Assembly: GCA_000990585.1 (NCBI GenBank)
Contig: LBQD01000002.1
Span: forward strand, 184,016 to 248,015
Source: Candidatus Moranbacteria bacterium GW2011_GWE2_35_2-
GTDB taxonomy: Bacteria > Patescibacteriota > Minisyncoccia > Moranbacterales > UBA9337
Direction of reading: 5' to 3'
DNA length: 64,000 bases
Shown here: piece by piece, positions 1 to 52,463 of the stretch
Numbering within the stretch: the stretch's first letter is position 1
Layout: the number at the start of each line of letters is the position of its first letter
Notes under the pieces: generated by a model
What the model saw: only the letters and a program-made list of their open reading frames with translations
Told to the model about the DNA's origin: nothing
Database searches by the model: none
Program-made: the position numbers and the translations under genes

Positions 1-2904
1 AGCGTGATGAAAGATGTGGTGCCGCGATATTGGACGATGCGCGGAAAATATGTCGAGCGAAAATGGGGCTGGGATTGCCATGGTCTTCCAATTGAAAATA
101 TCGTGGAGAAAGAACTTGGTTCAAAAAAGAAAAAAGACATCGAGGAAATGGGCGTGGAGAAATTCAACGAGCTGTGTCGAAGCAAAGTTTTGGAATATGT
201 CGATATTTGGAAAAAAGTGATTTCCCGGCTCGGACGCTGGGCGGATATGGAAAATGCCTACAAAACGATGGATTTGCCGTATATGGAATCGGTTTGGAAC
301 GTTTTCAAACAGCTCTATGACAAGGGTTTGATTTATGAAGGCTACCGCTCAATGCATATTTGCACGCGCTGTGAAACGACTTTATCGCAACAGGAGGTTT
401 CCGAAGGGTATAAGGATATTAAGGATTTGTCGGCGATCGCGAAATTCGAATTAGTGAAACCCTCACCCCTAACCCCTCTCCCGGAGGGAGAGGGGGATAA
501 GGTTTTCGTTTTAGCTTGGACGACGACACCTTGGACATTGATTGGGAATGTGGCGCTGGCAGTAGGAAAGGATATTGATTATGTGGAAATTGGAATTAAG
601 AATCAAGAATCAGGAATTAGAGAAAACTATATTTTAGCCAAAGACAGAATTGCGGATGTGGCGAGAGATAAAGAGTATGAAATTATAAAAGAATTCAAGG
701 GTAGCGAATTAGTCGGTAAAGAATACAAACCGCTATTTGATTATTATCAAAACAAAGGTTTGCAAAACGAAGAGAATGGCTGGAAAATTTATGCCGGAGA
801 TTTTGTGACGACTGATGAGGGAACTGGCGTGGTGCATATCGCGCCGGCATTTGGAGAGGATGATTTGAAATTGGGACAAAAAGAAAAATTGCCGTTTGTG
901 CAACACGTTGGGTTGGATGGCGTGATTAAAAAAGAAGTTGGAGATCCTGAAGCACAGCAATCTGGCTATAGGGCAAGTTTTGCGGGACTTTCAGTCAAGC
1001 CGATGACCGGGGAAAAAGACAGCCATCAAAAAACCGATATCGAAATCATCAAATATTTGGCGCACAAGGGTTTATTGTTTTTTAAGGAAAAATATGAACA
1101 CAGTTATCCGCATTGCTGGAGGTGTGACACGCCGCTAATTAATTACGCGACAAGCTCTTGGTTTGTGGCGGTGGAAAAAGTGAAAGACGAAGCGTTGGAA
1201 TTGGCAAAAGAAATAAATTGGTCGCCATCCCATATGAAAGAAGGACGGTTTGGAAAATGGCTGGAAGGCGCGCGCGATTGGTCGATTTCCCGGCAGAGGT
1301 TTTGGGCGAGTGTGATGCCGATTTGGGTTTGCGATCAATGCGGAGAAGTTAGGGTGTTTGGGGGCGTTGGGGAGTTGGAAGAAATTTCCGGAGAGAAAAT
1401 CACTGACATCCACAAGCATATCGTGGATAAAATCATTTTCAAATGTGAAAAGTGCGCTTCGACAGGCTCAGCGCAAGTAGGGACAATGAAACGGGTGCCG
1501 GATGTTTTGGATACTTGGTTTGACAGTGGCTCGATGCCGTATGCTCAGATGCATTATCCATTTGAAAATGTGGAAAAATTCGAAAAAAGTTTTCCGGCGG
1601 ATTTCATTGCCGAAGGGCAGGATCAGACCCGGGCGTGGTTTTATTATCTTCATATTCTAGGCACGGCGCTCAAAAACAAGCCGGCTTTCAAGAATGTGAT
1701 TGTCAATGGAACTGTTTTAGCGGAAGATGGAAAGAAAATGTCAAAAAGGTTAAGTAATTATCCCGATCCTATGGAGATGTTTGAAAAATACGGCGCGGAC
1801 GCGGTGCGATTCTATTTGATGAGCAGCCCCGTCGTGGCGGCGGAAAATTTGAATTTCAAAGAGGCGGATGTGGCGGACGTGGTTCGTGGGATGATGCGGA
1901 TGCTTTGGAATTCATATTCATTTTTTGTGTTGTATGCAAACATTGACGGCTTTGCGCCGCAAGATACAAGATACAAAATACAAGATACAAGCAGTCTTTT
2001 GGATAAGTGGATTATTTCGGAATTGCATACGCTGATTCGGGAATTCAATTTGCATATGGAAAATTATGAGCTTAACCGGGCGTGCCGTTTGGTGCCTAAA
2101 TTCGTGGACAATCTTTCCAATTGGTATGTGCGCCGATCAAGAAAAAGATTCTGGAAATCGGAAAATGACAATGATAAAAATGAGGCATACGCGACTTTGC
2201 ACTATGTTTTGGTGGAACTTTCCAAAGTAATGGCATCGTTTACACCGTTTATTTCGGAAGAGATTTATAGAAATTTGAAGAGCCCTTACCCCAACCCTCT
2301 CCCAGAGGGAGAGGGGGATTTAGTGTCGGTGCATTTGGCTGATTTTCCGATGGCGGATGAGAAGTTGATTGATGAAAAGTTGAATGAGCAAATGCAAAAA
2401 ACTCGCGAAATTATTACGGAAGCGTTGCAACTTCGCGCCAAAGCGGGAATCAAGGTGAGGCAACCTTTGGGTCAATTTTCAATTTTCAATTTTCAATTTT
2501 CAAACAATGAAAAAGAATTTTTAAATATAATAAAAGAGGAAGTTAATGTGAAAAATGTTGCGATTAGCGGAGAAGAAGAAACGGAAGGGAAATGGGCGGT
2601 TGGCGATGCCGGAGGAGTCAAAGTGTCTTTGAATACGGAAATAACGGATGAGTTGAGGATGGAGGGGCAGGCGCGGGAGGTTGTTCGCTTTATTCAGGAA
2701 ATGCGCAAAGAAGCGGGATATGAAGTTGACAATCGCATCCAAGTGTGCTATGATGGACAGTCGGATGTTTTTGAAAAATTCGGTTCTTTGATAACTAAAG
2801 AAGTGTTGGCAGACAAACTGTCTGCCGAAAAATTGGAAAAAACAGACCTGCAAAAAGAATTCAATCTGGATGGCGAAAAAATCCGGATTGGGATTTGCAG
2901 ATAA
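1..2904 (+). CDS. ileS: isoleucyl-tRNA synthetase, 5' truncated at window edge
   Basis: WDCHGLPIE, WSISRQRFW and KMSKRL (KMSKS-type) motifs; long C-terminal anticodon-binding/Zn region; frame open to base 1. Confidence 0.85.
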   Translation, partial: SVMKDVVPRYWTMRGKYVERKWGWDCHGLPIENIVEKELGSKKKKDIEEMGVEKFNELCRSKVLEYVDIWKKVISRLGRWADMENAYKTMDLPYMESVWNVFKQLYDKGLIYEGYRSMHICTRCETTLSQQEVSEGYKDIKDLSAIAKFELVKPSPLTPLPEGEGDKVFVLAWTTTPWTLIGNVALAVGKDIDYVEIGIKNQESGIRENYILAKDRIADVARDKEYEIIKEFKGSELVGKEYKPLFDYYQNKGLQNEENGWKIYAGDFVTTDEGTGVVHIAPAFGEDDLKLGQKEKLPFVQHVGLDGVIKKEVGDPEAQQSGYRASFAGLSVKPMTGEKDSHQKTDIEIIKYLAHKGLLFFKEKYEHSYPHCWRCDTPLINYATSSWFVAVEKVKDEALELAKEINWSPSHMKEGRFGKWLEGARDWSISRQRFWASVMPIWVCDQCGEVRVFGGVGELEEISGEKITDIHKHIVDKIIFKCEKCASTGSAQVGTMKRVPDVLDTWFDSGSMPYAQMHYPFENVEKFEKSFPADFIAEGQDQTRAWFYYLHILGTALKNKPAFKNVIVNGTVLAEDGKKMSKRLSNYPDPMEMFEKYGADAVRFYLMSSPVVAAENLNFKEADVADVVRGMMRMLWNSYSFFVLYANIDGFAPQDTRYKIQDTSSLLDKWIISELHTLIREFNLHMENYELNRACRLVPKFVDNLSNWYVRRSRKRFWKSENDNDKNEAYATLHYVLVELSKVMASFTPFISEEIYRNLKSPYPNPLPEGEGDLVSVHLADFPMADEKLIDEKLNEQMQKTREIITEALQLRAKAGIKVRQPLGQFSIFNFQFSNNEKEFLNIIKEEVNVKNVAISGEEETEGKWAVGDAGGVKVSLNTEITDELRMEGQAREVVRFIQEMRKEAGYEVDNRIQVCYDGQSDVFEKFGSLITKEVLADKLSAEKLEKTDLQKEFNLDGEKIRIGICR
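458..498 (+). repeat. GC-rich palindromic 38-bp element, copy 1 (in frame inside ileS)
   Basis: AACCCTCACCCCTAACCCCTCTCCCGGAGGGAGAGGGGGAT; stem CCCTCTCCC/GGGAGAGGG; encodes PSPLTPLPEGEGD. Confidence 0.8.
1960..1992 (+). repeat. heptanucleotide tandem array (CAAGATA)x4-5 inside ileS
   Basis: caagatacaagatacaaaatacaagatacaagc, in frame (QDTRYKIQDTS). Confidence 0.8.
2281..2319 (+). repeat. GC-rich palindromic element, copy 2 (in frame inside ileS)
   Basis: AGCCCTTACCCCAACCCTCTCCCAGAGGGAGAGGGGGAT; encodes SPYPNPLPEGEGD. Confidence 0.8.
2472..2503 (+). repeat. heptanucleotide tandem array (TCAATTT)x4 inside ileS
   Basis: tcaattttcaattttcaattttcaattttcaa, in frame (FSIFNFQFSN). Confidence 0.8.
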
Positions 2905-2937
2905 AATATAAAAACCGTAAATACGAGAGGTGCGTTT

Positions 2938-3084
2938 ATGGACATTGCAATCAAATTTTTTTTGGATGTATGTGAAGTTCCGCCGATTGTTCTATATGTG
3001 TTTTTTGGCGGAGGCTTTTTAATCATTTCGTTTTTCTTGCTCGCAACGGCGGGCGGGGAAAAAAATAAGGAGGGAAAGAAATGA
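2938..3084 (+). CDS. small hydrophobic peptide (48 aa), hypothetical
   Basis: ATG at 2938 preceded by gagagg; TGA stop overlaps ATG of next ORF (ATGA coupling); single TM segment. Confidence 0.3.
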   Translation: MDIAIKFFLDVCEVPPIVLYVFFGGGFLIISFFLLATAGGEKNKEGKK

Positions 3085-3335
3085 TAGTGGAATGGTTTTT
3101 TACCCTGCCCATGGATTTTAAAATCCTTGCGTGGGTAGGTTCTTTTTTGGCAACAGCTTTTTGCTGTATGTTCTGGGGAGCGTTTTTTCTCCCCCAAAAA
3201 AAATGTTTAAGATGTGATAACTTGGATGATCCTCACGAGATGTTTCGTGAAGCGGATGGGAGTCTTCTCTGCCGGAGTTGTAAGGCAGAAAAGATTGCCG
3301 CTTCGATCGTTTCAGGGTGCGAGCATTGTCATTAA
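3081..3335 (+). CDS. small membrane protein with C-terminal CxxC...CxxC zinc-ribbon
   Basis: 84 aa ORF, N-terminal TM helix, CLRC...CRSC...CEHC cysteine pairs; translationally coupled to upstream peptide. Confidence 0.4.
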   Translation: MIVEWFFTLPMDFKILAWVGSFLATAFCCMFWGAFFLPQKKCLRCDNLDDPHEMFREADGSLLCRSCKAEKIAASIVSGCEHCH

Positions 3336-3427
3336 CTTTGACAAGTGAGCTTGCCCCGAGGCTTGACTCTACGTAATGTGGAGTTGAGCTTTTTTTATTT
3401 TCTTGGAAATTTTAATATTTTTCTAAG

Positions 3428-3465
3428 AACCCTCACCCCAACCCTCTCCCAGAGGGAGAGGGGGA
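3428..3465 (+). repeat. GC-rich palindromic element, copy 3 (intergenic, upstream of recO)
   Basis: GAACCCTCACCCCAACCCTCTCCCAGAGGGAGAGGGGGAA. Confidence 0.8.
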
Positions 3466-3517
3466 AATAATGCTATGATAATAGAATATTGAGATGTTAG
3501 TATGTTAAAATGATTTT

Positions 3518-4231
3518 ATGGAATACAAATATACGGGAATAATTTTGGGAAAATATGATGTCGGGGAGACCGACCGGATTTATGTTATTTACACCTTGGA
3601 GCAAGGAAAAATTCGCGCGCTTGCCAAAGGGGTGCGCAAGATGCATGCTAAACTGTCAGGATCACTGGAGAGTTTCAATTTGGTTGATATTTTGATTGCG
3701 CGCAACAGGGGGATGGGAAAGATAAAATCAGCGATTGTGGAGAGAAACTTTTCCGTTATTAAAAACAATTTTGAACTGTTGGAAAAGGTTTTTCAAGTTA
3801 TTGGAATTTTCGGTCGTTTAATGGAAGATGAACAAAAAGACGAAGAAGCGTTTTTTTTGCTTGCGCAATATTTGAAAATGATGAATGAAAAAAACGGAGA
3901 TGATTTTTTGCGTTTTAGGATAATAACGCAGGGATTTTTGCACCAACTTTTTTCTTTATTGGGATATCAATTAGAAATTTCCGGTTGTGCGGTTTGTCGG
4001 GAAAAAATAAAAGCCGGCGGTAATTTTTTTTCAATGAGTTGCGGCGGAGTTGTTTGCCATAAGTGTGGCAATGATGTGGTTGAGAAAATGCGCGTTACGG
4101 ACAATACAATCAAGGCGATGCGTATTTTTTCTTCGAATAATTTGAAGTCCTTATTAAAGTTAAAAATAAAAAAAGAGGAAATAACAGAGTTGGAAAGAGT
4201 ATCCGATTTGTTTTATCGATGGATTGTATAA
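3518..4231 (+). CDS. recO: DNA repair protein RecO
   Basis: N-terminal OB-fold region (GIILGKYDVGETDRIYVIYT), C-terminal CAVC...CHKC zinc motif typical of RecO. Confidence 0.8.
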   Translation: MEYKYTGIILGKYDVGETDRIYVIYTLEQGKIRALAKGVRKMHAKLSGSLESFNLVDILIARNRGMGKIKSAIVERNFSVIKNNFELLEKVFQVIGIFGRLMEDEQKDEEAFFLLAQYLKMMNEKNGDDFLRFRIITQGFLHQLFSLLGYQLEISGCAVCREKIKAGGNFFSMSCGGVVCHKCGNDVVEKMRVTDNTIKAMRIFSSNNLKSLLKLKIKKEEITELERVSDLFYRWIV

Positions 4232-4267
4232 GTTGTCTTGTTGGGAAGAAAAAAATTTGATAAAATA

Positions 4268-6214
4268 ATGATACAATCTAATTGTTATATAGTTATTCGA
4301 ATAAAATTTTTTATGTCTCTTGATAACTTAAACAAAAAAATAAATAATCCCAATGAGTTGATTGATAATAGTGAAATTTACGGGGAAAAAAAATTACCAG
4401 TAGAGAACAAATTTATTATTGGTGATGGAAAAAAATGGAAGCGAACTAACGGTTGGCTGGATGAAGGAACATTGAAAATTATTAAAATTGCGATGATGGT
4501 TCTTGCCGGATTTTTTGTACTGGCGGCGATCGTTTATGGTGTTTTTCGGTACAGTCAAACTTCTTTTAGCGAGGAACGAGTGCTTGTTGAAATTGAGGGA
4601 CCGGCGGATATTAACAGTAGTGAAGTTGTAAAGTATAAAATAAAATATAAAAACAACAACCGAGCTGAACTTGAAAATGCGGAATTTGTGATTAGCTATC
4701 CTGAGAATTTCAATCCGGAAGGAAATTCTAATTTTCAAATTCAAGGGGAAAATAATAGTGTGGTTAAGGTGGGAAAAATAAAGTCTCGTGGTGAAGGTTA
4801 CGTGGAGATTAGTGGGCGTTTTTATGCGCCGATAAATTATACATTAATAATGAAAGCTTCATTGAAATACATGCCTTCAAATTTTAGCAGTCAATTTCAA
4901 TCTAGCACGCAAAAAGGTCTTAGCGTAAAAACTTCTCCGTTGGTAATTTCCATCAATGCTCCGATGGAGATTCTCAGTGAAAGTAAAATTAGTTATGTAA
5001 TCGGATACCAAAACACAAGTTCTATTTCTTTTGATGATTTGAAACTTGAAGTTGATTTTCCGAAAGGGTTTGAAATTCAAAATTCGGAAGTTTCTATTTT
5101 TAAAGAAAACAGCATTTGGAATGTTGGAAGGTTGGAGGCGGGGCAAAAAGGAGAAATCAAAATCGAGGGGATTATTCAAGGCGTAAGAGGTGATGTCAAA
5201 TCCATAAATGTCGCTATTGGACAGTTTAGGCAAGATAAGGAGTTGCTGGTGTTTGATAAAAGAGAAGCAATTTCTAAAATAGTGGTACTTCCTTTGTCCA
5301 TTTCACAAACAATAAATGAGCAAAAATCGCTTAATATCAATTCTGGGGAGAATTTGAATTATCGTTTGCATTATCGAAATGATGGAGATGTCGGATTGCG
5401 GGATTTGATTATAACGATGAAGATAGATTCTCCGGTTTTGGATTTTTCCAAGTTGAATTTGAGTGGCGGAGGTTCGTATGATTCGGAAAAAAAAGAAATT
5501 GCATGGAAAGCTTCTGATGTTTCTCAACTTGCCAAGCTTGATCCGGGTCAAGGAGGATCAGTAAGTTTTTCCATTCCAGTAAAAGACAAGATTGAAGTGA
5601 ACAGTAAGGAAGACAAAAATTTTTCAATTGAATCAATTGCTAAGATTGATAGTCCGGATGTGGCATATCCAGCGATAGGAGTAAATGAGAGTGCGAGCAG
5701 AGCGCTTGTAAAGGTCAATTCGAAAGTTATTTTAGAAACCGTCGGATATTATAAGGATGCGAATATTGCAACGTCCGGACCGATTCCTCCGGAAGTAGGC
5801 AAGGAAACGGAATATATTATTCATTGGTTAGTTACTAATATTTCCAATGATATTGATAATGTCTCGGTTTCCGCTTTTCTTCCGACGGGAGTGAAATGGA
5901 AAAACGAAATTTATTCAAAAACCGAGGATGTGAAATATAATGAAAGAACCAATGAGATTATTTGGAATCCGGGAAAAATTGAAAACGGAACCGGAATTTT
6001 GGGCAAAGTAAGAGATGTGAGTTTCAAAGTTTCGATAGTTCCACAAATAAATCAAGAAGGGAAAGCGGTTGTTCTTTTGGGAAAAACGACACTTAGGGCG
6101 AAAGACTTGTTTACTGGAAATGAAGTGTTAAAAGAAATTGCAGAAAAAAATACAGAACTTCGGGAAGATAGTAGTATTACATCTGCTGGTTATCAAGTGA
6201 AAAAAGGAGAGTAG
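4268..6214 (+). CDS. large N-terminally membrane-anchored surface protein, hypothetical (start uncertain; track start 4238 is TTG)
   Basis: single TM helix near residue 90 followed by ~550 aa beta-rich repeat-like domain; no catalytic motifs seen. Confidence 0.5.
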   Translation: MIQSNCYIVIRIKFFMSLDNLNKKINNPNELIDNSEIYGEKKLPVENKFIIGDGKKWKRTNGWLDEGTLKIIKIAMMVLAGFFVLAAIVYGVFRYSQTSFSEERVLVEIEGPADINSSEVVKYKIKYKNNNRAELENAEFVISYPENFNPEGNSNFQIQGENNSVVKVGKIKSRGEGYVEISGRFYAPINYTLIMKASLKYMPSNFSSQFQSSTQKGLSVKTSPLVISINAPMEILSESKISYVIGYQNTSSISFDDLKLEVDFPKGFEIQNSEVSIFKENSIWNVGRLEAGQKGEIKIEGIIQGVRGDVKSINVAIGQFRQDKELLVFDKREAISKIVVLPLSISQTINEQKSLNINSGENLNYRLHYRNDGDVGLRDLIITMKIDSPVLDFSKLNLSGGGSYDSEKKEIAWKASDVSQLAKLDPGQGGSVSFSIPVKDKIEVNSKEDKNFSIESIAKIDSPDVAYPAIGVNESASRALVKVNSKVILETVGYYKDANIATSGPIPPEVGKETEYIIHWLVTNISNDIDNVSVSAFLPTGVKWKNEIYSKTEDVKYNERTNEIIWNPGKIENGTGILGKVRDVSFKVSIVPQINQEGKAVVLLGKTTLRAKDLFTGNEVLKEIAEKNTELREDSSITSAGYQVKKGE

Positions 6215-6233
6215 TATCGTTTTATTTCAAAAT

Positions 6234-7397
6234 ATGGAAATTTTTTCCGAAAAAAGAGTAAGAGTGAAAAAAATAAAAACGAAAAGCGGAGAATTGCAAA
6301 CTCCGTTTTTTATGCCTGACGCTACACGAGGATTTATCAAATCTATGAGCGGAAAAGATTTGAAAGATGCAGGGGTTGGTCCGATGGTAGTCAATACATA
6401 TCATTTGTATTTGCAACCCGGTATGGAATTGATTAAGAAATCCGTCAGTCCTTGTCAAAATTTTGACGGACAAGGAAATATTCATAAATTTATGAATTGG
6501 GACAAGCCCTTGCTTTCCGATAGTGGAGGATATCAAGTTTTTTCTTTGATACACAAGAATCCGCAAATGGGAAAAATTACCGATGATGGCGTGGAATTTC
6601 GTTCGCCTTTGGATGGTTCAAAACACTATATTACTCCGGAAAAAGCGATTCAAATTCAGTTTGATTTGGGAGTGGATATGATGGTGTGCCTGGATGATCC
6701 GCCTCCAAACAGTCATACGAAAGAAAAAATTGAAGCGGCCGTTGATCGGACTTTGGCTTGGGCGAAAAGGTGTATGATAGAGTATAAAAAACAAATTAAA
6801 GAAAGGAAAATTGAAAAAGAAAATAAACCTTTGATTTTTTGCGTTATTCAAGGCGGTGAATATTTGGATTTGAGGAAAAAATGCGTTGAGGGATTGATTG
6901 AAATCGGGTTTTCCAAAGAAGGCGGACCGGCTATGCGATGGGATGGATATGGATTTGGTGCGCGGCATGTTGACAGCGAGGGCAATTTTTTGGAGAAAGT
7001 TTTGGAATATACTGCCAAGTTGATTCCGGAAGATTCTTTGCGTTTTGCTTTGGGAATCGGAACACCGGAGGATATTGTCCGTTCGGTGCAAATGGGATGG
7101 GATATGTTTGATTGCGTAATTCCGACGCGAGAGGCAAGACATGGAAAAATATTTTTATGGAAAGACGATAATTTGGAAGGGGAGTTTTATAAAACTGTGA
7201 ATATTACTAATTCGAAATTTAAGGATGATTTTAGCGCGATAGATGAAAATTGTGATTGTGAACTTTGTCTAAATTATTCACGGGCATATTTGCATCATAT
7301 TTTCAAAATGAAAGATCCTTTGGCGGCACGTATTGCTTCGATTCACAATTTGAAATTCTATACGAATTTGATGAAAAAAATCCGCGGGGAGATGTAG
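6234..7397 (+). CDS. tgt: queuine tRNA-ribosyltransferase
   Basis: GGYQVFSL, DCVIPTR, CDCELC...H zinc site and YLHHIFKMKD motif. Confidence 0.9.
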   Translation: MEIFSEKRVRVKKIKTKSGELQTPFFMPDATRGFIKSMSGKDLKDAGVGPMVVNTYHLYLQPGMELIKKSVSPCQNFDGQGNIHKFMNWDKPLLSDSGGYQVFSLIHKNPQMGKITDDGVEFRSPLDGSKHYITPEKAIQIQFDLGVDMMVCLDDPPPNSHTKEKIEAAVDRTLAWAKRCMIEYKKQIKERKIEKENKPLIFCVIQGGEYLDLRKKCVEGLIEIGFSKEGGPAMRWDGYGFGARHVDSEGNFLEKVLEYTAKLIPEDSLRFALGIGTPEDIVRSVQMGWDMFDCVIPTREARHGKIFLWKDDNLEGEFYKTVNITNSKFKDDFSAIDENCDCELCLNYSRAYLHHIFKMKDPLAARIASIHNLKFYTNLMKKIRGEM

Positions 7398-7747
7398 GCT
7401 TTTTTTGTAGAATTATTGTAGGTTTGAATTTAAAAAATCGAATGTTCTTTTTGAATAAAAAATTATCATAGAAGGTTAAAATAGGGAAAAAACTGAATTT
7501 CTCATAGCCAACCTCATGAAAAAAAGAAAAAGTTGGTAGTAGATAAAAATAACCGATTTTGTAAAAAAATCAAATTTAATGTTGAAAATGAAAGAATGTT
7601 ATGACTCATATCATCAAAATTTGCGTTCGTATTTTTATTTGATCCAAAGACAAGTTCTTAGATGATTATTAAAAAAAATGTCACAGGCTGATTTTCTTAT
7701 TATATTCGAGTCTTTTTTTATTTCATTTTTAAGGATATAATGAAAAT

Positions 7748-9025
7748 ATGAAAAAAATAATTCCACAAAAATTGAAAAATTATTATCATCTACTTTACGC
7801 CGTGGTGGCTAATTTTTGGTACGGATTTCCGTCAAAAAAAATAAAGGTAATTGGCGTAACGGGAACTAATGGAAAAACAACAACCGTGCAAATGATAACC
7901 AAGATTTTGGAAGAAGCTGGATTTGATGTGGCAATGGCTTCAACGATCAATTTCAAATTAAACGGTAAAGAAAAAGTTAATAAAACAAAATTCACAACCC
8001 TCTCGGCATTTGCGGTACAAAAATTTATTATGGATGCGGTTTTGGGTGAACATGATTTTGTGGTCTTGGAAACTTCATCGCATTCGCTAGATCAATACAG
8101 AGTGTGGGGAGTGGAATATGACACAGCAGTGATTACCAATGTGACGCGTGAGCATTTGGATTATCACAAGACAATGGAACAGTATCGAAAAGCCAAAAAA
8201 ACATTATTTAAAAAAGCGGAAAATATTGTGGTTAATTTGGATATGGAGAAACCGGAATATTATTTGAGTGCGGATGTCGAGAAAAAATATGGATATAGTA
8301 TTGAGAATCAAGAATCAAGAATCAAGAATCAGGATTTTTATAAAATGATAAAAGCAGAGAATATAAAACTAGATATCAATAAATCTGAATTCATAATTCA
8401 TAATTCTCAATTCTTATTAAATTTGCCGGGTAAGTTCAATATTGAAAATGCACTGGCGGCAACTTGCGTCGGAATGATTTATGATATTAAAAATGATGTT
8501 ATCGCGCGAGCTTTGGAAAAAATCAATGGAATTCCAGGAAGAATGGAAAGTGTTTCAAATGATAGAGGTTTAAATATTATAATTGACTACGCCGTGACTC
8601 CGGATTCATTGGAAAAATTGTATAGACTAATCAGAGAGTTTCGAAATACTGAAGACGGAAAAATCATTGCGGTATTTGGTTCTTGCGGAGAGCGTGATCG
8701 CGGCAAGCGTCCGATAATGGGAGAAATTGTTTCGCGTACTGCCGACTATGTCATTGTGACTAATGAAGATCCGTATGGAGAAGATCCGCAAAGAATTATT
8801 GATGAGGTGGCAAGCGGGGTGAAAAACAAAAAAGAGAATGAAAACTTTTGGAAAATAACGGATCGCCGCAGGGCAATCAAAAAAGCATTGCAAATTGCAA
8901 GGCCGGGGGATTTTGTGATTGTGACCGGCAAGGGGGCGGAAGAAACAATGGCAGTCGGCGCCACCGAAAGAATTTCTTGGAGCGATAAGAAAATTATCCG
9001 AGAAATATTGCAAGAATCAATGTAA
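7748..9025 (+). CDS. Mur ligase family protein, MurE-like, lacking the usual N-terminal UDP-binding domain
   Basis: P-loop VIGVTGTNGKTTT only ~35 aa from N-terminus; C-terminal GSCGERDRGKRP...VTNEDPYGEDP resembles MurE DNPR region. Confidence 0.65.
   Translation: MKKIIPQKLKNYYHLLYAVVANFWYGFPSKKIKVIGVTGTNGKTTTVQMITKILEEAGFDVAMASTINFKLNGKEKVNKTKFTTLSAFAVQKFIMDAVLGEHDFVVLETSSHSLDQYRVWGVEYDTAVITNVTREHLDYHKTMEQYRKAKKTLFKKAENIVVNLDMEKPEYYLSADVEKKYGYSIENQESRIKNQDFYKMIKAENIKLDINKSEFIIHNSQFLLNLPGKFNIENALAATCVGMIYDIKNDVIARALEKINGIPGRMESVSNDRGLNIIIDYAVTPDSLEKLYRLIREFRNTEDGKIIAVFGSCGERDRGKRPIMGEIVSRTADYVIVTNEDPYGEDPQRIIDEVASGVKNKKENENFWKITDRRRAIKKALQIARPGDFVIVTGKGAEETMAVGATERISWSDKKIIREILQESM
8303..8331 (+). 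repeat. heptanucleotide tandem array (AGAATCA)x4 inside Mur ligase gene
   Basis: gagaatcaagaatcaagaatcaagaatcagg, in frame (ENQESRIKNQD). Confidence 0.8.
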
Positions 9026-9446
9026 GAACAAAACCGAAAATCGCTCCGGCGATCGCTTCTTCCGGACGATGCCCCATTCTTTCTTTGAGGCGGGTATATT
9101 CTTTTTCATCAACACCGATTTTATCAGTGAGCATATTAATATAGCGGCTGTGTTCTCCCATATAGACGCGAAGTCTTGTGGCGTCGTCAATAATCAAAAT
9201 CGCCAAAACAAAAGCAATGGCGAATTCTCCTGAGTCGATTCCGGAGAAATATCCAACGGAAGTTACCAAGGAAATCATTAAAGCGCTATGCACGCTGGGC
9301 ATATGTCCATATGTCATTGCGTGGTCAAGCGTATATTTGAAATTATTTCCGTGTTTGACGTAGAATATGATAAATTTCAAGATTCTAGCGAAAGCCAAAA
9401 CGATCAAAGGAATGATAAACATTGCATAATTTGAAAAAATATCCAT
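8994..9446 (-). CDS. divergent PAP2 (YuiD-like) family membrane protein
   Basis: HMPSVHSA motif and multi-TM topology; ATG at 9446 (track start 9464 is TTG); 3' end overlaps Mur ligase 3' end by 32 bp. Confidence 0.55.
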   Translation of the reverse strand: MDIFSNYAMFIIPLIVLAFARILKFIIFYVKHGNNFKYTLDHAMTYGHMPSVHSALMISLVTSVGYFSGIDSGEFAIAFVLAILIIDDATRLRVYMGEHSRYINMLTDKIGVDEKEYTRLKERMGHRPEEAIAGAIFGFVLTLILAIFLG

Positions 9447-9576
9447 TTTATTTGAAATTAACAATTTAACATTTTAATTATAGCACAAAAAAACGGAAAA
9501 AACAGGAATATTTTATTTTTTGCCAAATAGTGTATAATTAAAGATACAGTATAATAATTAAAATAAAAGTAAAAAT

Positions 9577-10128
9577 ATGGGAATTGGATTGATTTTATTA
9601 ATTGTTCTTATTATTGTGGCGGTGTGGGTTCTTGGGATTTATAACAGTTTAATCAAATTGAAAAATAGAGTGGATGAAGCATGGAGCGATATTGATGTGC
9701 AACTCAAAAGGCGTTATGATTTAATTCCGAATTTGATCAACACTGTTAAGGGTTACGCAACGCACGAGAAGGAATTGTTTGAAAAAATAACGCAGGCTCG
9801 AACGGCGGCAATGGGAGCGAAAAATCCGGCAGAAAAAGAACAAACGGAAAATATGCTTTCCGACACCTTAAAATCGCTTTTTGCGGTGGCGGAAAATTAT
9901 CCGGATTTAAAAGCCAATCAAAATTTTTTGGAATTGCAACGCGAACTTTCTGATACAGAGAATAAAATTCAGGCATCCAGAAGATTTTACAATGGCAATG
10001 TTCGTGATTTCAATACTAAAATTGAGGTTTTTCCAAATAATTTGATTGTCGGAATGTTGAATTTTACCAAGCGCGAATTTTTTGAAGCTGAGGAGAGGGA
10101 GAAAGAAAATGTGAAAGTGGAATTCTAA
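9577..10128 (+). CDS. lemA: LemA family protein
   Basis: N-terminal TM then NSLIKLKNRVDEAWSDIDVQLKRRYDLIPNL signature. Confidence 0.85.
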   Translation: MGIGLILLIVLIIVAVWVLGIYNSLIKLKNRVDEAWSDIDVQLKRRYDLIPNLINTVKGYATHEKELFEKITQARTAAMGAKNPAEKEQTENMLSDTLKSLFAVAENYPDLKANQNFLELQRELSDTENKIQASRRFYNGNVRDFNTKIEVFPNNLIVGMLNFTKREFFEAEEREKENVKVEF

Positions 10129-10237
10129 TCAAGTTTTTTATTTATAAAATATAAATAGCGTGAAATTTAGTAATAAAGAAAAAGAGGGAATAAAATCTTC
10201 TTTGGGTTGTGAAGGAAATTGTTTTTTAATTTTTACG

Positions 10238-10822
10238 ATGACTCTCACTGTGGTTTTTTTATTAGTGGTTGCCTTTGCATTGTATGAAATTAAGGAGATG
10301 TTAGGAATTCATTTGATTGAAGATGAGAGAAAATATGAAACAGTTAGTGTTAATAATGATAACAGTGCTAATGTTAAATGGAATTTTTTTCAAGACAAAA
10401 ATAAGGATTTCAAGATTTACTATCCGGCTGATTGGATTATGGAAAAAAACAGTGAAAATTCAATTGTTTTAAAGAGAATTCAAGCAGAAGAAATCGGAGA
10501 TTATAAAATGGAATCAATGCTTCTGCGTCTTTCTGTTGATTATTTAAAAAAAGATGAAAATGAAAGTTTGGATGAATTTGTGGCGAAAAATAAAAAAGAT
10601 GGCGATCAATACGAGGTGGTTGTTCCAGGTAAAGATGAAATAAATATAGAAGGGATGGCTATTAATAATTCCATTCCATTTGAATTGCATTGTTTTGACG
10701 GAGATAGTGCGGTTTTGTGTCTCAAAGTTGATTATTATCGAGTCGGAAACACGGAAAAATGTCGCGATACATTCAGGGAAATTGTAGCAAAAGTTGAAAT
10801 AAATAAAGAAAATAAGGAGTAA
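10238..10822 (+). CDS. hypothetical membrane-anchored protein
   Basis: ATG at 10238 followed by TM helix (track start 10160 is GTG); lies between lemA and htpX. Confidence 0.35.
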   Translation: MTLTVVFLLVVAFALYEIKEMLGIHLIEDERKYETVSVNNDNSANVKWNFFQDKNKDFKIYYPADWIMEKNSENSIVLKRIQAEEIGDYKMESMLLRLSVDYLKKDENESLDEFVAKNKKDGDQYEVVVPGKDEINIEGMAINNSIPFELHCFDGDSAVLCLKVDYYRVGNTEKCRDTFREIVAKVEINKENKE

Positions 10823-10826
10823 AAAA

Positions 10827-11714
10827 ATGGCAACATTGTATACGCAAGCCGATCGAAATATAAGACTTACCTGGTTGTATATAACCGGTTTTTTGATATT
10901 CGTAATTGGTGTTGGTTATGTTTTTGCCGGGGCGATGGGGAATAGTACGATTTTGTATGGTGCGGTGATTTTCTCGGTAGTGATGAGCTTCGGATCATAT
11001 TGGTGGAGCGACAAAATCGTTTTGGCGATGAGCGAGGCAAAGGAATTGACCCATGACAACAATCGGGAAATATACCATCTGGTGGAAAATCTCTGCATTA
11101 CCGCCGGCCTTCCTGTTCCCAAGATTTATATCATCCAAGACAGCGCGCCGAACGCTTTCGCGACCGGGCGCGATCCCAAGCACGGGGTTATTTGCCTGAC
11201 GACTGGGATCGTTGAAAAATTAGAAAAGACCGAATTGGAGGGTGTAATCGCGCACGAACTTTCGCATATCGGGAACCGGGATATTCTGCTTTCCACGGTG
11301 GTCGTGATTTTGGTAGGCTTCGTTACGCTTTTGGCGGATTGGTTCCGGCACTGGGCGTTTTTCGGCAGGCGTGGAAGTGATCGCGAAGGTGGTGGGCAAT
11401 TGCAGATTATCCTGATGGTTGCGGCGATTGCGCTTTCGATTTTGGCTCCGATCGCGGCGGTGTTGATGCAATTGGCGATTTCTCGAAAAAGGGAATTTTT
11501 GGCGGATGCCTCCGCAGCCATTCTGACGCGCTATCCGGACGGATTGGCACGCGCTCTGGAAAAGATTTCCGCCGATCAAGAACCGCTGGAAGCCGCTAAC
11601 CGGGCTACGGCGCATCTGTATATCGCCAATCCCTTTAAAAGAAAGAAAGTTTCAAAACTGTTTATGACTCATCCGCCGATCGAAGAAAGAGTTAAGGCGT
11701 TGCGAAATATGTAA
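10827..11714 (+). CDS. htpX: zinc metalloprotease HtpX (peptidase M48)
   Basis: HELSHIGNRD HExxH motif, 4 TM helices, AAGGAG RBS; classic lemA-htpX neighbourhood. Confidence 0.9.
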   Translation: MATLYTQADRNIRLTWLYITGFLIFVIGVGYVFAGAMGNSTILYGAVIFSVVMSFGSYWWSDKIVLAMSEAKELTHDNNREIYHLVENLCITAGLPVPKIYIIQDSAPNAFATGRDPKHGVICLTTGIVEKLEKTELEGVIAHELSHIGNRDILLSTVVVILVGFVTLLADWFRHWAFFGRRGSDREGGGQLQIILMVAAIALSILAPIAAVLMQLAISRKREFLADASAAILTRYPDGLARALEKISADQEPLEAANRATAHLYIANPFKRKKVSKLFMTHPPIEERVKALRNM

Positions 11715-11739
11715 ATATTATTTGCTTGCAATATAATTT

Positions 11740-12174: not shown

Positions 12175-12197
12175 GATATTTTCGAAAAAAATAAAAA

Positions 12198-12227
12198 AAC
12201 GAGTCCGATGTAGGGGCTCGTTATTTT
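12198..12227. terminator. hairpin between convergent genes, putative bidirectional terminator
   Basis: AACGAGTCC-gatgtag-GGGCTCGTT stem-loop followed by T-rich run. Confidence 0.4.
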
Positions 12228-12252
12228 AGTAAGAAAGATACTTTCATCTAGA

Positions 12253-12636: not shown

Positions 12637-12721
12637 GAACTTTCTCCTTGTTATTATGTTAAATTACTATACGATTTGTGTTATTATTAGGGTAGTTTAA
12701 TATTTGCTATTTGTAAAGGCT

Positions 12722-50179: not shown

Positions 50180-50255
50180 AAGTTTAATTATCAAAATTAT
50201 TAATGATCAATTATTAATTAATGTTCAATGAAATAATTTTCAAAAATATTAAAAA

Positions 50256-50304
50256 ATTGAAAATTATAAATTGATTGTAAATTGAAAATTGTGAATTGAA
50301 ATTT
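50256..50304 (+). repeat. intergenic heptamer array (AAATTGA)n upstream of mreB, reverse complement of the TCAATTT array in ileS
   Basis: aaaattgaaaattataaattgattgtaaattgaaaattgtgaattgaaa. Confidence 0.7.
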
Positions 50305-50313
50305 TTTTCAGAT

Positions 50314-51321
50314 ATGTTTTTACGAAAAATTGGAATTGATTTAGGAACAGCGAATATTTTGATTTTTATTCCTGGTAAGGGGGTGGTAATCAATGAACCG
50401 TCGGTAGTGGCGGTTTCTTTGGCTGAGAACAGGGTTTTGGCGGTGGGTAATGAAGCTAAAGAAATGCTCGGACGTACTCCGGATACGATTATTGCCAGTC
50501 GTCCACTCAAAGATGGGGCGATCGCGGATTATCGTATTACTGAAGCTATGCTTAAATATTTTATCAATAAAGTAAGTGGAAAATTTCGCTTGTTTCGTCC
50601 GGAGGTGATGATTTCTGTTCCGGCAGGGATTACTTCAACGGAAAAAAGAGCGGTGATTGATGCGGCGGTTAAAGCGGGTGCCAAGGCGGCCTATGTTCTC
50701 AAAGAGCCGATTTTGGCGGCAATTGGGGCGGGAATTCCAATCAATAACGCACAAGGGAATATGATAATCGATATTGGTGGCGGAACATCAGAAGTGGCGG
50801 TAATTTCTTTGGGTGGAGTGGTGGCGGCTCATAGCGCGCGTGTTGGAGGAAATAGATTTGATCAAGCGATTGCTGACTATATCAAACGCAAGCACGGATT
50901 GGCAATCGGAGACCGCACGGCGGAGGATATTAAAATTCAAATTGGCAGTGCTATTGCGCAAGTTAAGGAAGAATATGCAGAAGTAAAAGGGAGGGATTTG
51001 ACTGGTGGACTCCCCAAGATAATTAAAGTTTCTTCCAATGAAATTACCGAAGCATTGCAAGATGAACTTCGCGAGGTGATTAATGCGATTAAAAAAGTCC
51101 TGCAAGAAACTCCCCCGGAATTGGCGGCGGATATTATGGATAAAGGGATGGTTCTTTCAGGAGGAGGAGCGCTATTGCGCAATCTTGATCAACTTATTAC
51201 GAAAACTATTAACGTTCCTTGTTATGTAGCGGATGATGCGCTCCTTTGTGTGGTAAAAGGAACCGGAAAAGCCTTGGAAAATTTAGATTTGTATAAAAAG
51301 ACCTTATTGATGAGCAAATGA
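50314..51321 (+). CDS. mreB: rod shape-determining protein MreB
   Basis: IGIDLGTANI, NEPSVVA, actin-fold phosphate/adenosine motifs; ATG 50314 (track start TTG). Confidence 0.9.
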   Translation: MFLRKIGIDLGTANILIFIPGKGVVINEPSVVAVSLAENRVLAVGNEAKEMLGRTPDTIIASRPLKDGAIADYRITEAMLKYFINKVSGKFRLFRPEVMISVPAGITSTEKRAVIDAAVKAGAKAAYVLKEPILAAIGAGIPINNAQGNMIIDIGGGTSEVAVISLGGVVAAHSARVGGNRFDQAIADYIKRKHGLAIGDRTAEDIKIQIGSAIAQVKEEYAEVKGRDLTGGLPKIIKVSSNEITEALQDELREVINAIKKVLQETPPELAADIMDKGMVLSGGGALLRNLDQLITKTINVPCYVADDALLCVVKGTGKALENLDLYKKTLLMSK

Positions 51322-52463
51322 AAATAGGTATTGATGGTTCGCGGGCGTTTTTGAAAAATCGCACGGGAATCGAAGAATATTCTTATCAAGTTATCAAACA
51401 CCTGAGGGACAAATTAGAAAGTCATCAGGTGATTTTGTATTTGAGGAAGAATCAAGAATTGAGAATCAAGAATCAGGGCTTTGAATTGCCGGAAAATTGG
51501 AAAGTGAAAGTGATAAGTTTTCCAAGGTTTTGGACTCAGATCGGATTGTCCTTGGAAATGCTTTTGCGTCCGATAGATGTGCTTTTTGTGCCGGCGCACA
51601 CAGTGCCGATCATTCATCCCAGAAAAACAATCGTGACAATTCATGGATTGGAATACGAATTTTGTCCCAAAGCTTATTCATTTTGGGAAAAAATTTATAT
51701 GCGCTGTTCGATAAAATTTTCTTGCAAGTGGGCGAGTAGGATTATTTCTGTTTCGGAAAATACCAGGAAAGATTTGATGAGATTGTATAATGCGCCGGAA
51801 AATAAGATTGAAGTTATTTATGAGGGATACAATTTTAATTTCCAATTTCCAATTTCCAATTTTCAATCAATTTCCAATGATAAAATTTTAAATTCAAAAA
51901 ATAAGTATCTACTGTTTATTGGCAGGCTGGAAAAACGGAAGAATACTCTGGGAATCATTAAGGCATTTGAAATTTTAAAAGAAAAATATCAAATTCCGCA
52001 CAAACTGATTTTGGCGGGAAAAGGCGGGTATGGAGAAGAGGAAATTAAAGATAAAATTGAAAAATCAAAATATAAAGAGGATATTATTTTACCGGGTTTT
52101 ATTGCCGAAGAAGAAAAATGGGAATTATTGAAAAATGCAGATGTTTTTTTGTTTCCGACTTTTTATGAGGGTTTTGGAATTCCGATTTTAGAAGCGCAAA
52201 GCGTCGGCACTCCTGTGGTGGCTGGAAACAATTCCTCAATTCCGGAAGTGGTGTCAGTAAAACAGGGAAGTATTGAATTGTCAGATCAAAAGTCAGCTTT
52301 GCTTGTGGATGTTAATAGCGCGGAAGAAATCGCCGAAGCAACTTATGAGCTTATTAACGATAATGATTTGAGAGAAAAAATAATTAAAATGGGATTGGAA
52401 AACGTCAAAAGATTTTCTTGGGAAAAATGCGCATCTTCTATTACTAAATTATTGAATAAATAG
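51318..52463 (+). CDS. glycosyltransferase family 4 (GT-B)
   Basis: C-terminal EGFGIPILEAQSVGTPVV EX7E region. Confidence 0.8.
   Translation: MKIGIDGSRAFLKNRTGIEEYSYQVIKHLRDKLESHQVILYLRKNQELRIKNQGFELPENWKVKVISFPRFWTQIGLSLEMLLRPIDVLFVPAHTVPIIHPRKTIVTIHGLEYEFCPKAYSFWEKIYMRCSIKFSCKWASRIISVSENTRKDLMRLYNAPENKIEVIYEGYNFNFQFPISNFQSISNDKILNSKNKYLLFIGRLEKRKNTLGIIKAFEILKEKYQIPHKLILAGKGGYGEEEIKDKIEKSKYKEDIILPGFIAEEEKWELLKNADVFLFPTFYEGFGIPILEAQSVGTPVVAGNNSSIPEVVSVKQGSIELSDQKSALLVDVNSAEEIAEATYELINDNDLREKIIKMGLENVKRFSWEKCASSITKLLNK
51447..51474 (+). repeat. heptanucleotide tandem array (AAGAATC)x4 inside glycosyltransferase gene
   Basis: aagaatcaagaattgagaatcaagaatcagg, in frame (KNQELRIKNQG). Confidence 0.8.
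51837..51880 (+). repeat. heptanucleotide tandem array (AATTTCC)x3-4 inside glycosyltransferase gene
   Basis: aatttccaatttccaatttccaattttcaatcaatttccaat, in frame (NFQFPISNFQSISN). Confidence 0.8.

Follow-up and report, generated by a model that had tools for sequence, protein, structure and literature searches.

The 64-kb stretch of Candidatus Moranbacteria DNA analyzed here, which we refer to as the window, contains ten arrays of period 7 that are probably heptanucleotide simple-sequence repeats, generated by slippage, kept by selection on the reading frame and turned over, without a regulatory function. As such, they would belong to a repeat class already known from bacteria, in a variant found within coding sequence, rather than being a mobile element or a gene switch. 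The arrays were detected with Tandem Repeats Finder and our own scans (Table 1), nine of them within four genes whose identities are backed by Pfam, namely, ileS, a MurE-type ligase gene, a conserved hypothetical gene and a GT4 glycosyltransferase gene, and one upstream of mreB. Perfect arrays of at least three copies numbered four for period 7 and zero for periods 6 and 8-15. Five arrays had a periodicity score of at least 14, compared with a mean of 0.01 and a maximum of 1 in 100 dinucleotide-preserving shuffles; a chance origin is excluded. An assembly artefact is also excluded, because the independent ENA, NCBI, JGI and Logan assemblies carry the same arrays, which thus did not vanish on re-assembly, an outcome that a previous sequence-only reading of the window had allowed for.

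Table 1. Period-7 arrays of the window, with their host regions, units and encoded peptides.
Position	Strand	Host region	Unit and copies	Encoded peptide
593-617	+	ileS	GAATTAA/GAATCAA/GAATCAG, imperfect (Tandem Repeats Finder: period 7, 3.6 copies, 88% matches)	GIKNQESGI (residues 197-205 of window ORF)
1960-1991	+	ileS	CAAGATA x4.6, 32 nt, one mismatch	QDTRYKIQDTS
2472-2503	+	ileS	TCAATTT x4.6, 32 nt, perfect	GQFSIFNFQFSN
8304-8331	+	MurE-type ligase (7748-9025), site A	AGAATCA x4, perfect	ENQESRIKNQ
8380-8416	+	MurE-type ligase, site B	AATTCAT AATTCAT AATTCTC AATTCTT, imperfect	NKSEFIIHNSQFL
12961-12991	+	Hypothetical gene (12704-13153), 5' arm of inverted pair	AAGAATT x4.4, imperfect	KRIKNKELGIK
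13013-13045	+	Hypothetical gene, 3' arm of inverted pair	ATTCTCA x4.7, 33 nt, perfect	ILNSQFSILNS
50253-50301	.	Intergenic, between MazG-like gene and mreB	AAAATTG/AAATTGA, ~7 copies with indels, imperfect	
51447-51475	+	GT4 glycosyltransferase (51318-52463)	AAGAATC x4.1, imperfect	KNQELRIKNQ (residues 44-53)
51837-51878	+	GT4 glycosyltransferase	AATTTCC, 26 nt perfect, then decayed	NFQFPISNFQSISN (residues 174-187)
63364-63379	+	Second GT4 gene	AATTTTC x2.3, 16 nt, marginal	NFQFSN

Heptamer arrays were found at every place named by the sequence-only reading, with period 7 confirmed by both approaches, and the ileS array at 593-617 was absent from its list. We could also verify the low complexity that it had ascribed to the encoded peptides (QFSIFNFQFS, ENQESRIKNQ and ILNSQFSILNS), as well as the correspondence by which the AAATTGA unit upstream of mreB is the reverse complement of the TCAATTT unit of ileS. 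The run in the second GT4 gene, which had been counted as an array, is at chance level with its 2.3 copies: in related DNA, 33 period-7 runs of 16 nt were counted over ~1.04 Mb, a density of about two in 64 kb, and this run is therefore not significant on its own. It lies in an inter-domain linker equivalent to that of the first GT4 gene, and is possibly a decayed array or a chance occurrence.

Period 7 also predominates in relatives, where 957 kb from 80 MurE-linked loci yielded 102 arrays of this period, compared with 22, 3, 5, 4 and 1 for periods 4, 5, 6, 8 and 9, respectively. About 87% of these period-7 arrays lie within ORFs, with fpg, femAB and dnaG-region genes among their hosts. The lengths of perfect coding runs show a sharp peak at 31-33 nt (15, 10 and 9 cases of 31, 32 and 33 nt, respectively; ~4.5 copies), with a trough at 21-29 nt and zero above 34 nt, and this peak fits a seed of 10-12 nt plus 21 nt, that is, three units or seven codons. 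The earlier suggestion that only multiples of three units keep the frame holds in that, with a unit of 7 nt, an array can change viably in length only by steps of three units, but not for the arrays themselves, which hold four to five copies; what comes in threes is the number of added units, not the copy number. Non-coding arrays are broad in length in Cyanobacteria (21-110 nt) and in Bacteroidota, and cyanobacterial arrays reach 200 nt in the sampled loci. The perfect non-coding arrays from CPR, the group to which the host belongs, span 25-45 nt and, at about nine, are too few to tell frame selection from a quantisation intrinsic to the mechanism.

Units in coding arrays are cyclically stop-free in 91 of 98 cases (93%), with no stop in any of the three frames. 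Stops are found in AAAATTT, the commonest non-coding unit, and in AAATTGA, the intergenic unit of the window, where TGA is present in the given orientation. Within the hypothetical gene, a perfect AAGAATT array at 12961 would hold an in-frame TAA, which is avoided by a T-to-A variant at the second junction. The 91 stop-free coding arrays comprise 34 different units, and their sense strand is rich in C and poor in G: 70 of the 91 lack G altogether, versus 39 expected under an AT-matched, stop-free null. Array starts tend toward a (C)AA register, codon phase is uniform among 90 arrays, none being preferred, and no flanking motif was detected among 90 arrays (at most 0.17 bit per position). The distributions of length and stops show that the arrays are filtered.

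The sites that host the arrays appear to be permissive. In an AlphaFold model of the MurE-type ligase, site A is predicted to be a surface loop (residues 185-194; 10-residue block means of pLDDT 73-77), the location that the sequence-only reading had proposed to look for in modelled structures, and site B a beta-hairpin (strands E213-217 and E220-224) preceding LNLPG. The ileS and GT4 arrays were placed between Pfam domains: catalytic and anticodon-binding for ileS 1960-1991, Anticodon_1 and DUF5915 for ileS 2472-2503, and, for GT4 51837-51878, the linker that joins two Rossmann-type domains (Pfam limits 17-172 and 185-358). When aligned to the solved IleS 8c8v, the array at 593-617 faces a gap of ~5 aa, whereas across the 1960-1991 segment the window protein exceeds 8c8v by 3 residues only, and therefore there is no 7-aa insertion there. 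The peptide of the 2472-2503 array pairs gaplessly with QSLSLVVTEEDV of 8c8v, and judging from this alignment the array is an apparent in-place replacement of native sequence. Two ileS arrays and MurE site B replace native sequence with no net change in length relative to homologs, for which simple insertion is insufficient, and a compensating deletion or a conversion-like process is needed.

Once in place, arrays contract, re-expand and decay, and because of this turnover orthologous sites differ in unit, each site being internally homogeneous. At MurE site B, for instance, other lineages have homogeneous AAAATTC, AAACTAC or CAGTTCT arrays, or a decayed AAATACC array, at constant length. At site A, a relative with 84% MurE identity (L011) has seven copies, a gain of 21 nt or exactly three units. 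At 13013, a strain 99.96% identical over 19 kb, with one SNP (L001), has exactly one ATTCTCA unit fewer; this loss of 7 nt, the sole indel in the 19 kb, frameshifts the hypothetical gene and shortens its product from 149 to 112 aa. These two changes, together with the clustering at 31-33 nt, bear out the earlier description of the arrays as slippage-type tandem repeats. In this hypothetical family, loop lengths are concentrated at 18 and 32-33 aa. In the comparison of related strains that had been suggested as a check, 13013 is the only window array that varies, and the others showed no variation in 4-6 independent assemblies. The short allele at 13013 occurs in one contig, versus ~25 with an intact frame. 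There is little direct evidence of hypermutability: variant alleles amount to one among ~48 array-by-contig comparisons, and copy number is unchanged between paired relatives whose nucleotide identity is 99.6-99.9%.

We infer that the arrays originate from a replication or repair process that would strongly favour 7-nt register shifts, a preference described before in many bacteria, and duplicate a heptamer, starting where 3-5 nt recur 7 nt apart. With ~90% of the host genome coding, the majority of events would therefore fall in genes, where three filters may operate. Net gains of three units (21 nt, seven codons) would survive, giving an array of 31-33 nt and ~4.5 copies, as would stop-free units and orientations, namely, AT-rich words in which a C parts a T run from an A run; and survival would be favoured where the protein tolerates a seven-residue peptide rich in N, Q, S, K, F and I, namely, in loops, in linkers between domains or in a strand-turn-strand hairpin. 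A one-unit slip is a frameshift in essential genes, so that passing from 1.5 to 4.5 copies would need three slips at once or intermediates. The arrays would then be a mutational by-product and a source of length variation in protein loops, rather than a means of regulation, except perhaps in the hypothetical gene, which is non-essential and whose product is truncated by a one-unit loss.

It is very unlikely that the arrays are contingency loci, selected as slipped-strand on/off switches. The one-unit loss in L001 does frameshift its gene, any change of one unit is out of frame because arrays hold four to five copies, and heptanucleotide tracts are reported to drive phase variation elsewhere, for example in neuO of E. 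coli and the HMW adhesins of H. influenzae. Yet the majority of arrays lie in essential housekeeping genes, to which fpg, femAB and dnaG-region genes of relatives are also counted, where an OFF state would be lethal, and with ileS and murE as hosts the phase variation put forward by the sequence-only reading is implausible as a general role. The single out-of-frame allele in ~26 contigs and the invariance of the other arrays also argue against it, as does their position mid-gene in loops, rather than close to the 5' end of a surface or restriction-modification gene; the window has one gene of the latter kind, of type I (56222-58642), and it has no heptamer array. A function as nucleic-acid elements, either as hairpins (terminators, RNA-stability or regulatory stems) or as protein-binding sites, is unlikely. 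A reverse-complement partner lies within 160 nt of 33-40 out of 199 arrays from cross-phylum loci, versus one in distant controls; a dG of -22.4 kcal/mol (z=-5.6) is predicted for the hairpin of the inverted pair in the hypothetical gene; and intergenic pairs in CPR relatives, which separate co-directional genes, form very stable predicted folds (-35.4 and -29.6 kcal/mol in L200 and L203, z about -7.7), with a T run closing the pair in L182. A role as sites for a translational regulator has moreover been suggested for TAACTGA repeats (PMC4679880). However, coding arrays in CPR loci are single, without a partner; the MurE pair folds no better than shuffles (z about -1), and the predicted fold upstream of mreB is not significant (z=-1.15); the units are too diverse for one binding protein; and quantisation and stop avoidance indicate constraints at the protein level.

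The resemblance among window units, with AAGAATC/T at four loci and AATTTYC also at four if the marginal run at 63364 and the reverse-complement intergenic array are counted, could suggest a single family propagated across loci by a short mobile element or by ectopic gene conversion. An identical unit is indeed shared about twice as often within one locus as between different loci (7.4% versus 3.5%, p=0.04), and the in-place replacement of native sequence by some arrays is what conversion would produce. We nevertheless regard this as highly improbable, given the diversity of units among the 91 arrays, the differing units at orthologous sites, the lack of conserved flanks, termini or target duplications, and the fact that arrays of ~32 nt with unrelated flanks offer no homology for recombination. 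AT-richness and stop avoidance account for much of the resemblance, and the look of a shared TCAA core, on which the proposal of one propagating family or mobile remnant had been built, stems largely from stop avoidance requiring a C between T run and A run; nor is there a single conserved motif, as the uptake or recombination signals also proposed would have. Very doubtful, too, is a dedicated process, distinct from generic slippage and limited in length, that would write heptamer repeats in stretches of ~32 nt, in many cases in place and with a single orientation with respect to replication. It would account for the sharp peak that ends abruptly at 34 nt, the replacement at unchanged length, the C-over-G strand bias exceeding the null, the (C)AA start register and the near absence of arrays from minority-strand genes (96 versus 1 overall, and 15 versus 1 in loci with a 61:39 base split). 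However, lineage is a confounder of the strand asymmetry, which is only marginal after correction, non-coding lengths are broad in other phyla and spread out even in the few CPR cases, no candidate enzyme was found, and frame selection alone predicts the peak.

As probable products of slippage filtered by the reading frame, the arrays find their closest precedents among other heptamer repeats. In most genomes, no long simple-sequence repeats are more abundant than heptamers, for which an origin by slippage of the polymerase has been proposed (Mrazek 2007, as summarized in PMC4692102 and PMC4679880); for repeats inside genes, unit lengths that are multiples of three were reported to prevail (Mrazek, Guo and Shah 2007, same summaries). 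As far as these summaries go, those repeats share with the arrays here their head-to-tail 7-nt units, a period 7 far commoner than its neighbours, the proposed slippage origin and a sporadic occurrence in many phyla; AATTYYC arrays matched Cyanobacteria, Bacteroidota, Acidobacteriota, Xanthomonas and CPR in our scan. They differ in that arrays here are mostly in genes, essential ones included, and quantised at ~4.5 copies; the survey, moreover, had no CPR genomes to draw on. The cyanobacterial STRR and the GGGAATC / GGGGAYT repeats of Xanthomonas and Nostoc (PMC4692102) also have 7-nt units at many loci, lengths that vary between relatives and occasional inverted stem-loop pairs, but they are mainly intergenic, G-rich, often long and with quadruplex potential, unlike the short, AT-rich coding arrays of this study, in which G is scarce on the sense strand. 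The TAACTGA direct repeats of Beggiatoaceae, Cyanobacteria and Bacteroidetes (MacGregor 2015, PMC4679880) are alike in their 2-6 copies and stop-dictated orientation: no frame of the forward unit is free of stops, the reverse unit can be read as the seven-residue repeat LSVISYQ, and the copies that succeed within genes are peripheral in the protein structure. However, they have one dominant unit per genome, mostly right upstream of start codons and with the suggested regulatory role, unlike the many units found here, mostly mid-gene and with no link to start codons.

The Borg amino-acid tandem repeats (PMC9879509) are likewise perfect, recent in-ORF nucleotide repeats that encode low-complexity peptides with the frame intact, but their units are longer and divisible by three, whereas here the frame is kept only through three added units. 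The contingency loci of Haemophilus, Neisseria and Campylobacter share in-ORF tandem repeats in which a one-unit change shifts the frame, as in the 13013 allele, and differ from the arrays here in that the latter have essential housekeeping hosts, short tracts, rare out-of-frame alleles and no enrichment in surface or restriction genes. Rickettsia palindromic elements, dispersed copies of ~100-150 nt of one conserved palindromic sequence, provide a case of short repeated DNA tolerated in frame at structurally permissive sites of essential genes. The arrays here share this in-frame tolerance, but without a conserved sequence. A GC-rich palindrome is also present in the window, at 458-497, 2281-2318 and 3428-3465, and it is a closer analogue of the Rickettsia elements than the heptamer arrays.

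The window comes from a Candidatus Moranbacteria (candidate phyla radiation, CPR) population genome, and its period-7 arrays are not a product of one assembly. Positions 1-19025 are 100% identical to LBSS01000002.1 (GCA_000992055.1), and contigs near-identical to the window are present in ENA, JGI, NCBI and Logan assemblies; as the same arrays recur in independent assemblies, the artefact that would have undone the sequence-only reading is ruled out. Using Tandem Repeats Finder, we recovered a period-7 array at every place named by that reading, plus one more, the first of the ileS arrays in the table below. Pfam searches bore out its gene names, the encoded peptides match its description, and the intergenic array before mreB is, as claimed, the reverse complement of the ileS unit and contains TGA in that orientation. 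The array assigned to the second GT4 gene spans only 16 nt, which is chance level. Ten head-to-tail arrays, four of which are perfect, have between 3.6 and 7 copies and count as simple-sequence repeats (unit of 1-11 nt); they are longer and more frequent than composition predicts. Namely, perfect arrays of at least three copies number four at period 7 and zero at periods 6 and 8-15, and five arrays reach a periodicity score of at least 14, where 100 dinucleotide-preserving shuffles gave 0.01 such arrays on average and never more than 1, which rules out chance.

Features of the window and inverted pairs of other loci
Feature	Position	Remarks
ileS	4-2904	truncated by window edge; Pfam
ileS arrays	593-617; 1960-1991; 2472-2503
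MurE-type Mur ligase gene	7748-9025	Pfam
MurE site A	8304-8331	AGAATCA x4
MurE site B	8380-8416	AATTCAT/AATTCTC, imperfect
Hypothetical gene	12704-13153	149 aa; no match in Pfam search
Hypothetical gene, first array	12961-12991	AAGAATT
Hypothetical gene, second array	13013-13045	ATTCTCA
Hypothetical gene, inverted pair	12961-13045
Hypothetical gene, long imperfect hairpin	12955-13050	in coding sequence
mreB	50296-51321	Pfam
First GT4 glycosyltransferase gene	51318-52463	Pfam
Second GT4 glycosyltransferase gene	62770-63918	Pfam
GC-rich element, copies in ileS	458-497; 2281-2318	in frame
GC-rich element, third copy	3428-3465	intergenic, upstream of recO
Terminator-like hairpin	18600-18650	after sigma-70 gene
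20-nt indel	56061-56080	in 3' part of the 137-aa ORF
137-aa ORF	55900-56313
Type I restriction-modification gene	56222-58642	strand opposite to the 137-aa ORF
Dispersed repeat region	61333-61511
Dispersed repeats, first pair	61447-61511; 54500-54564	98% identical
Dispersed repeats, second pair	61333-61465; 58863-58994	83% identical
Tyrosine recombinase gene	61916-62773
Inverted pair, locus L200	8060-8150
Inverted pair, locus L203	6720-6803
Inverted pair, locus L182	1485-1604
Inverted pairs, loci L017, L080, L085, L109, L116 and others

The arrays are a property of the lineage, and not of the window alone. In a relative with 84% MurE identity (L011), 21 kb of sequence contains five period-7 arrays, two of them in murE and the others in fpg, femAB and the hypothetical gene; periods 5 and 6 have a single array apiece, and periods 8-12 have none. 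Across 80 related loci (957 kb, 37-66% identity), obtained from a metagenome scan with a MurE alignment, 102 arrays have period 7, compared with 22, 3, 5, 4 and 1 at periods 4, 5, 6, 8 and 9, respectively, and almost none beyond, which amounts to roughly one period-7 array every 9 kb; 88 of the 102 lie within open frames of at least 300 nt. Heterogeneity of array density between lineages was not significant (chi-square 38, 28 degrees of freedom). A further scan for AATTYYC x3, using one genome per species, gave at least 119 stretches. Among the matches listed are Cyanobacteria, Bacteroidota, Acidobacteriota, Xanthomonas, at least 14 CPR genomes and others, and their loci hold additional period-7 arrays and hardly any of another period. 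These findings agree with the literature. According to Mrazek 2007, as summarised in PMC4692102 and PMC4679880, heptanucleotides outnumber all other long simple-sequence repeats in most prokaryotic genomes, and polymerase slippage over a 7-nt contact has been put forward to explain this. Specific cases are the cyanobacterial STRR and the GGGAATC repeats of Xanthomonas (PMC4692102), as well as the TAACTGA repeats of Beggiatoaceae, Cyanobacteria and Bacteroidetes (PMC4679880). In the literature that we searched, we found no description of the coding-embedded, frame-quantised form seen here.

Array length in the CPR loci carries the mark of the reading frame. Perfect period-7 runs fall off geometrically to 17 nt, are scarce at 21-29 nt, peak at 31, 32 and 33 nt (15, 10 and 9 cases) and do not extend past 34 nt; this peak is entirely coding. 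Non-coding arrays span 21-110 nt in Cyanobacteria and lack a peak in Bacteroidota. A run of 31-33 nt corresponds to a seed of 10-12 nt, made up of one unit plus a recurrence of 3-5 nt, with an addition of 21 nt, equal to three units or seven codons. The rule that only multiples of three units preserve the frame, as originally proposed, is therefore right, but for the units added to the seed and not for total copy number. In addition, 91 of 98 coding units are free of stops in all three frames that a three-unit array exposes, whereas AAAATTT, the commonest non-coding unit, does contain a stop codon, and the first array of the hypothetical gene, which if perfect would bring TAA into frame, escapes this through a T-to-A change at its second junction. 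The codon phase of array starts is uniform (37/30/30), which is expected because all three frames yield one cyclic peptide.

These constraints bear on the proposal that the units form one propagating family, which did not survive: the 91 stop-free coding arrays comprise 34 units and share no flank motif, since 40 nt on each side of 90 arrays gave at most 0.17 bit per position. A MITE- or RPE-like mobile element is likewise not supported: its copies would share a conserved sequence bounded by defined termini or by terminal inverted repeats, and both the flanks and the diversity of the units speak against this. A weak excess of identical units within one locus was recorded (7.4%, against 3.5% between loci, p=0.04). 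The resemblance between units comes from their being AT-rich (5-6 of 7 bases), as a run of A followed by a run of T can be closed without a stop only via C, giving AA-NNNN-C words and a recurrent TCAA junction. Composition and stop avoidance suffice only in part to explain the spectrum, however, for G-less units remain in excess, both under a plain null (76% observed, 18% expected) and under an AT-matched stop-free null (70 of 91 observed, 39 expected).

Strains and relatives differ by whole units. Copy-number variation, which the sequence-only reading had suggested looking for, was found at one array among near-identical assemblies, which show no variants at the other arrays, and at a further array in a more distant relative. 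At the second array of the hypothetical gene, exactly one ATTCTCA unit (-7 nt) is lost in L001, a strain whose only other difference over 19 kb is one SNP; this loss, seen on 1 of about 26 contigs, shortens the protein from 149 to 112 aa, and is the single exception among near-identical strains, whose arrays are mostly stable. MurE site A has four units in the window and seven in L011 (+21 nt). MurE, which has three recurrent array sites, one of them encoding a complete beta-hairpin, also shows turnover at constant protein length: depending on the lineage, site B is homogeneous for AAAATTC, AAACTAC, CAGTTCT or AATTCTC, or retains a decayed AAATACC-type periodicity. That one orthologous site has internally uniform yet mutually different arrays implies that these have repeatedly contracted and re-expanded, or have undergone conversion, and not that they changed by point mutation. 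Compared with homologs, some sites differ by 7 or 14 aa and others are replaced in place without a gap; indel sizes against the nearest homologs are clean at +/-7 aa for the closest pair and noisy for the remaining comparisons, because homologs have arrays or variable loops of their own.

The arrays are located where proteins tolerate them. A confident structural model of MurE (mean pLDDT 87) has a loop at site A (residues 185-194; block-mean pLDDT 73-77) and, at site B, a strand-turn-strand hairpin (E213-217/E220-224) ahead of the conserved LNLPG motif. Two ileS arrays fall between Pfam domains, and the second array of the first GT4 gene and the marginal one of the other GT4 gene both fall in the linker between two Rossmann-type domains. 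The hypothetical family (613 homologs) carries its arrays in a single variable loop, which lies between two conserved motifs, EIWVMY and IRIISAW. Heptamer-type peptides fill this loop in many lineages, and its length has one mode at 18 aa, with 22 sequences, and another at 32-33 aa, with 24. Against the solved IleS structure 8c8v, the third ileS array aligns without gaps, the second adds three residues only and the first is an insertion of about 5 aa; judged by this alignment, the second and third arrays replace native sequence in place, as does MurE site B.

A subset of arrays is paired. Within 160 nt, a reverse-complement array accompanies 33-40 of 199 arrays in the cross-phylum loci, compared with 1 in controls, in the layout array, spacer of 11-85 nt, reverse-complement array. 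Non-coding pairs in CPR relatives lie between co-directional genes and have a very stable fold (z about -7.7). The one such pair of the window, inside the hypothetical gene, folds at -22.4 kcal/mol (z=-5.6); its arms are near reverse complements, and the sole strain-level copy-number change affects its 3' arm. The MurE pair and the array upstream of mreB fold no better than shuffles. Inverted pairs may act as terminator-like stems or may have arisen by template switching across a hairpin, and, given the pairing and folding data, a hairpin-related origin or function is possible for paired arrays and not for single coding ones. By gene strand, 96 arrays are in plus-strand genes and 1 in a minus-strand gene, for 753 and 195 kb of gene bases (window and L131-L210), and counting only loci where minus-strand genes cover 3 kb or more leaves 15 and 1 arrays for a 61:39 base split. 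This near-absence from minority-strand genes is suggestive; we take it as a lead only, since most minus-strand genes are found in distant loci that are poor in arrays, and since MurE itself is part of the corrected contrast. An independent set showed no strand signal (n=6 for CPR).

Taken together, the arrays are probably a mutational by-product that selection has filtered. Their period specificity and whole-unit changes suggest that they are made by replication slippage; on an almost fully coding genome, selection then leaves a clear signature of units added in threes, words free of stops, and placement in loops or linkers. Simple slippage fits poorly in some respects: one-unit slips are frameshifts, an obstacle to going from 1.5 to 4.5 copies in ileS or murE; sequence is replaced in place at the second and third ileS arrays and MurE site B; and, as a lead only, arrays are nearly absent from minority-strand genes. 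It is tempting to speculate, although we regard it as improbable, that the arrays come from a dedicated, strand-oriented writing process instead of generic polymerase stutter, common to CPR, Cyanobacteria, Bacteroidota and others, which lays down local-heptamer blocks of about 32 nt (three helical turns), often overwriting in place and often as inverted pairs. If so, gene-dense CPR genomes would hold a built-in generator of 7-residue protein-loop variants. As a by-product filtered by selection, the arrays are a modest source of seven-residue loop variation.

The bacterial heptanucleotide excess has been known since 2007, its mechanism is not established, and it has been regarded as an intergenic phenomenon. 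This lineage shows the same process on an almost fully coding genome, at about one array per 6-10 kb within genes, including those of an aminoacyl-tRNA synthetase and a cell-wall ligase. Such genomes are a natural experiment on 7-nt slippage bias, on the origin of 7-residue insertions in proteins and on the mapping of insertion-tolerant sites. They also pose an annotation hazard for metagenome-assembled genomes, where one-unit differences split or truncate gene calls, as in L001.

Other elements were noted in the window. The GC-rich element, AACCCTCACCCCAACCCTCTCCCAGAGGGAGAGGGGGA, is about 38 nt long, folds as a 10-bp stem closed by a loop of 3 nt and occurs in three copies; the two within ileS (KPSPLTPLPEGEGD and SPYPNPLPEGEGD) are 11- and 13-residue insertions relative to 8c8v. 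Its core pattern has 24 matches (8.75 expected) and its strict palindrome none in 206 loci of other genomes; it resembles the small palindromic repeats of REP or RPE type, here tolerated by an essential gene. The terminator-like hairpin AAAAAAGACACAATGTGTCTTTTTT is a perfect palindrome, at which GCA_003508935.1 has NN and lacks 9 nt, an assembly gap. The indel ACGGAAGAAAATCAAGTGCA, present in the window and missing from LBSS01000002.1, lies just upstream of the overlap between its ORF and the 3' end of the restriction-modification gene. The dispersed repeats near the tyrosine recombinase gene, for which a tRNA check ruled out tRNA genes, may represent recombination sites, or what is left of an integrated element bearing the restriction-modification gene.

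Compared with known systems, DNA uptake or recombination signals (DUS/USS/Chi) consist of one conserved motif in many single copies, and the role suggested earlier on these lines is not supported: no motif is common to the arrays, whose units differ, and it is tandem periodicity itself that makes up the signal. Phase-variable loci have dispensable hosts, typically surface, restriction-modification or environment-facing, unlike the hosts here, namely ileS, the murE-type ligase and GT4, with fpg and femAB in one relative. In assemblies, which are consensus sequences only, the out-of-frame allele with its 112-aa product is on one contig, against about 25 intact, and other arrays show no variants. 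Borg-type amino-acid tandem repeats have units divisible by three inside ORFs, whereas the unit here is 7 nt, and periods 6 and 9 are nearly missing (5 and 1 arrays in 957 kb). The cyanobacterial STRR are long intergenic arrays of few genome-specific heptamers, whereas those described here are 25-50 nt long, about 87% coding and built from 34 units. The arrays are heptanucleotide simple-sequence repeats of a known bacterial class, and the imprint of reading-frame selection is their distinctive trait here.
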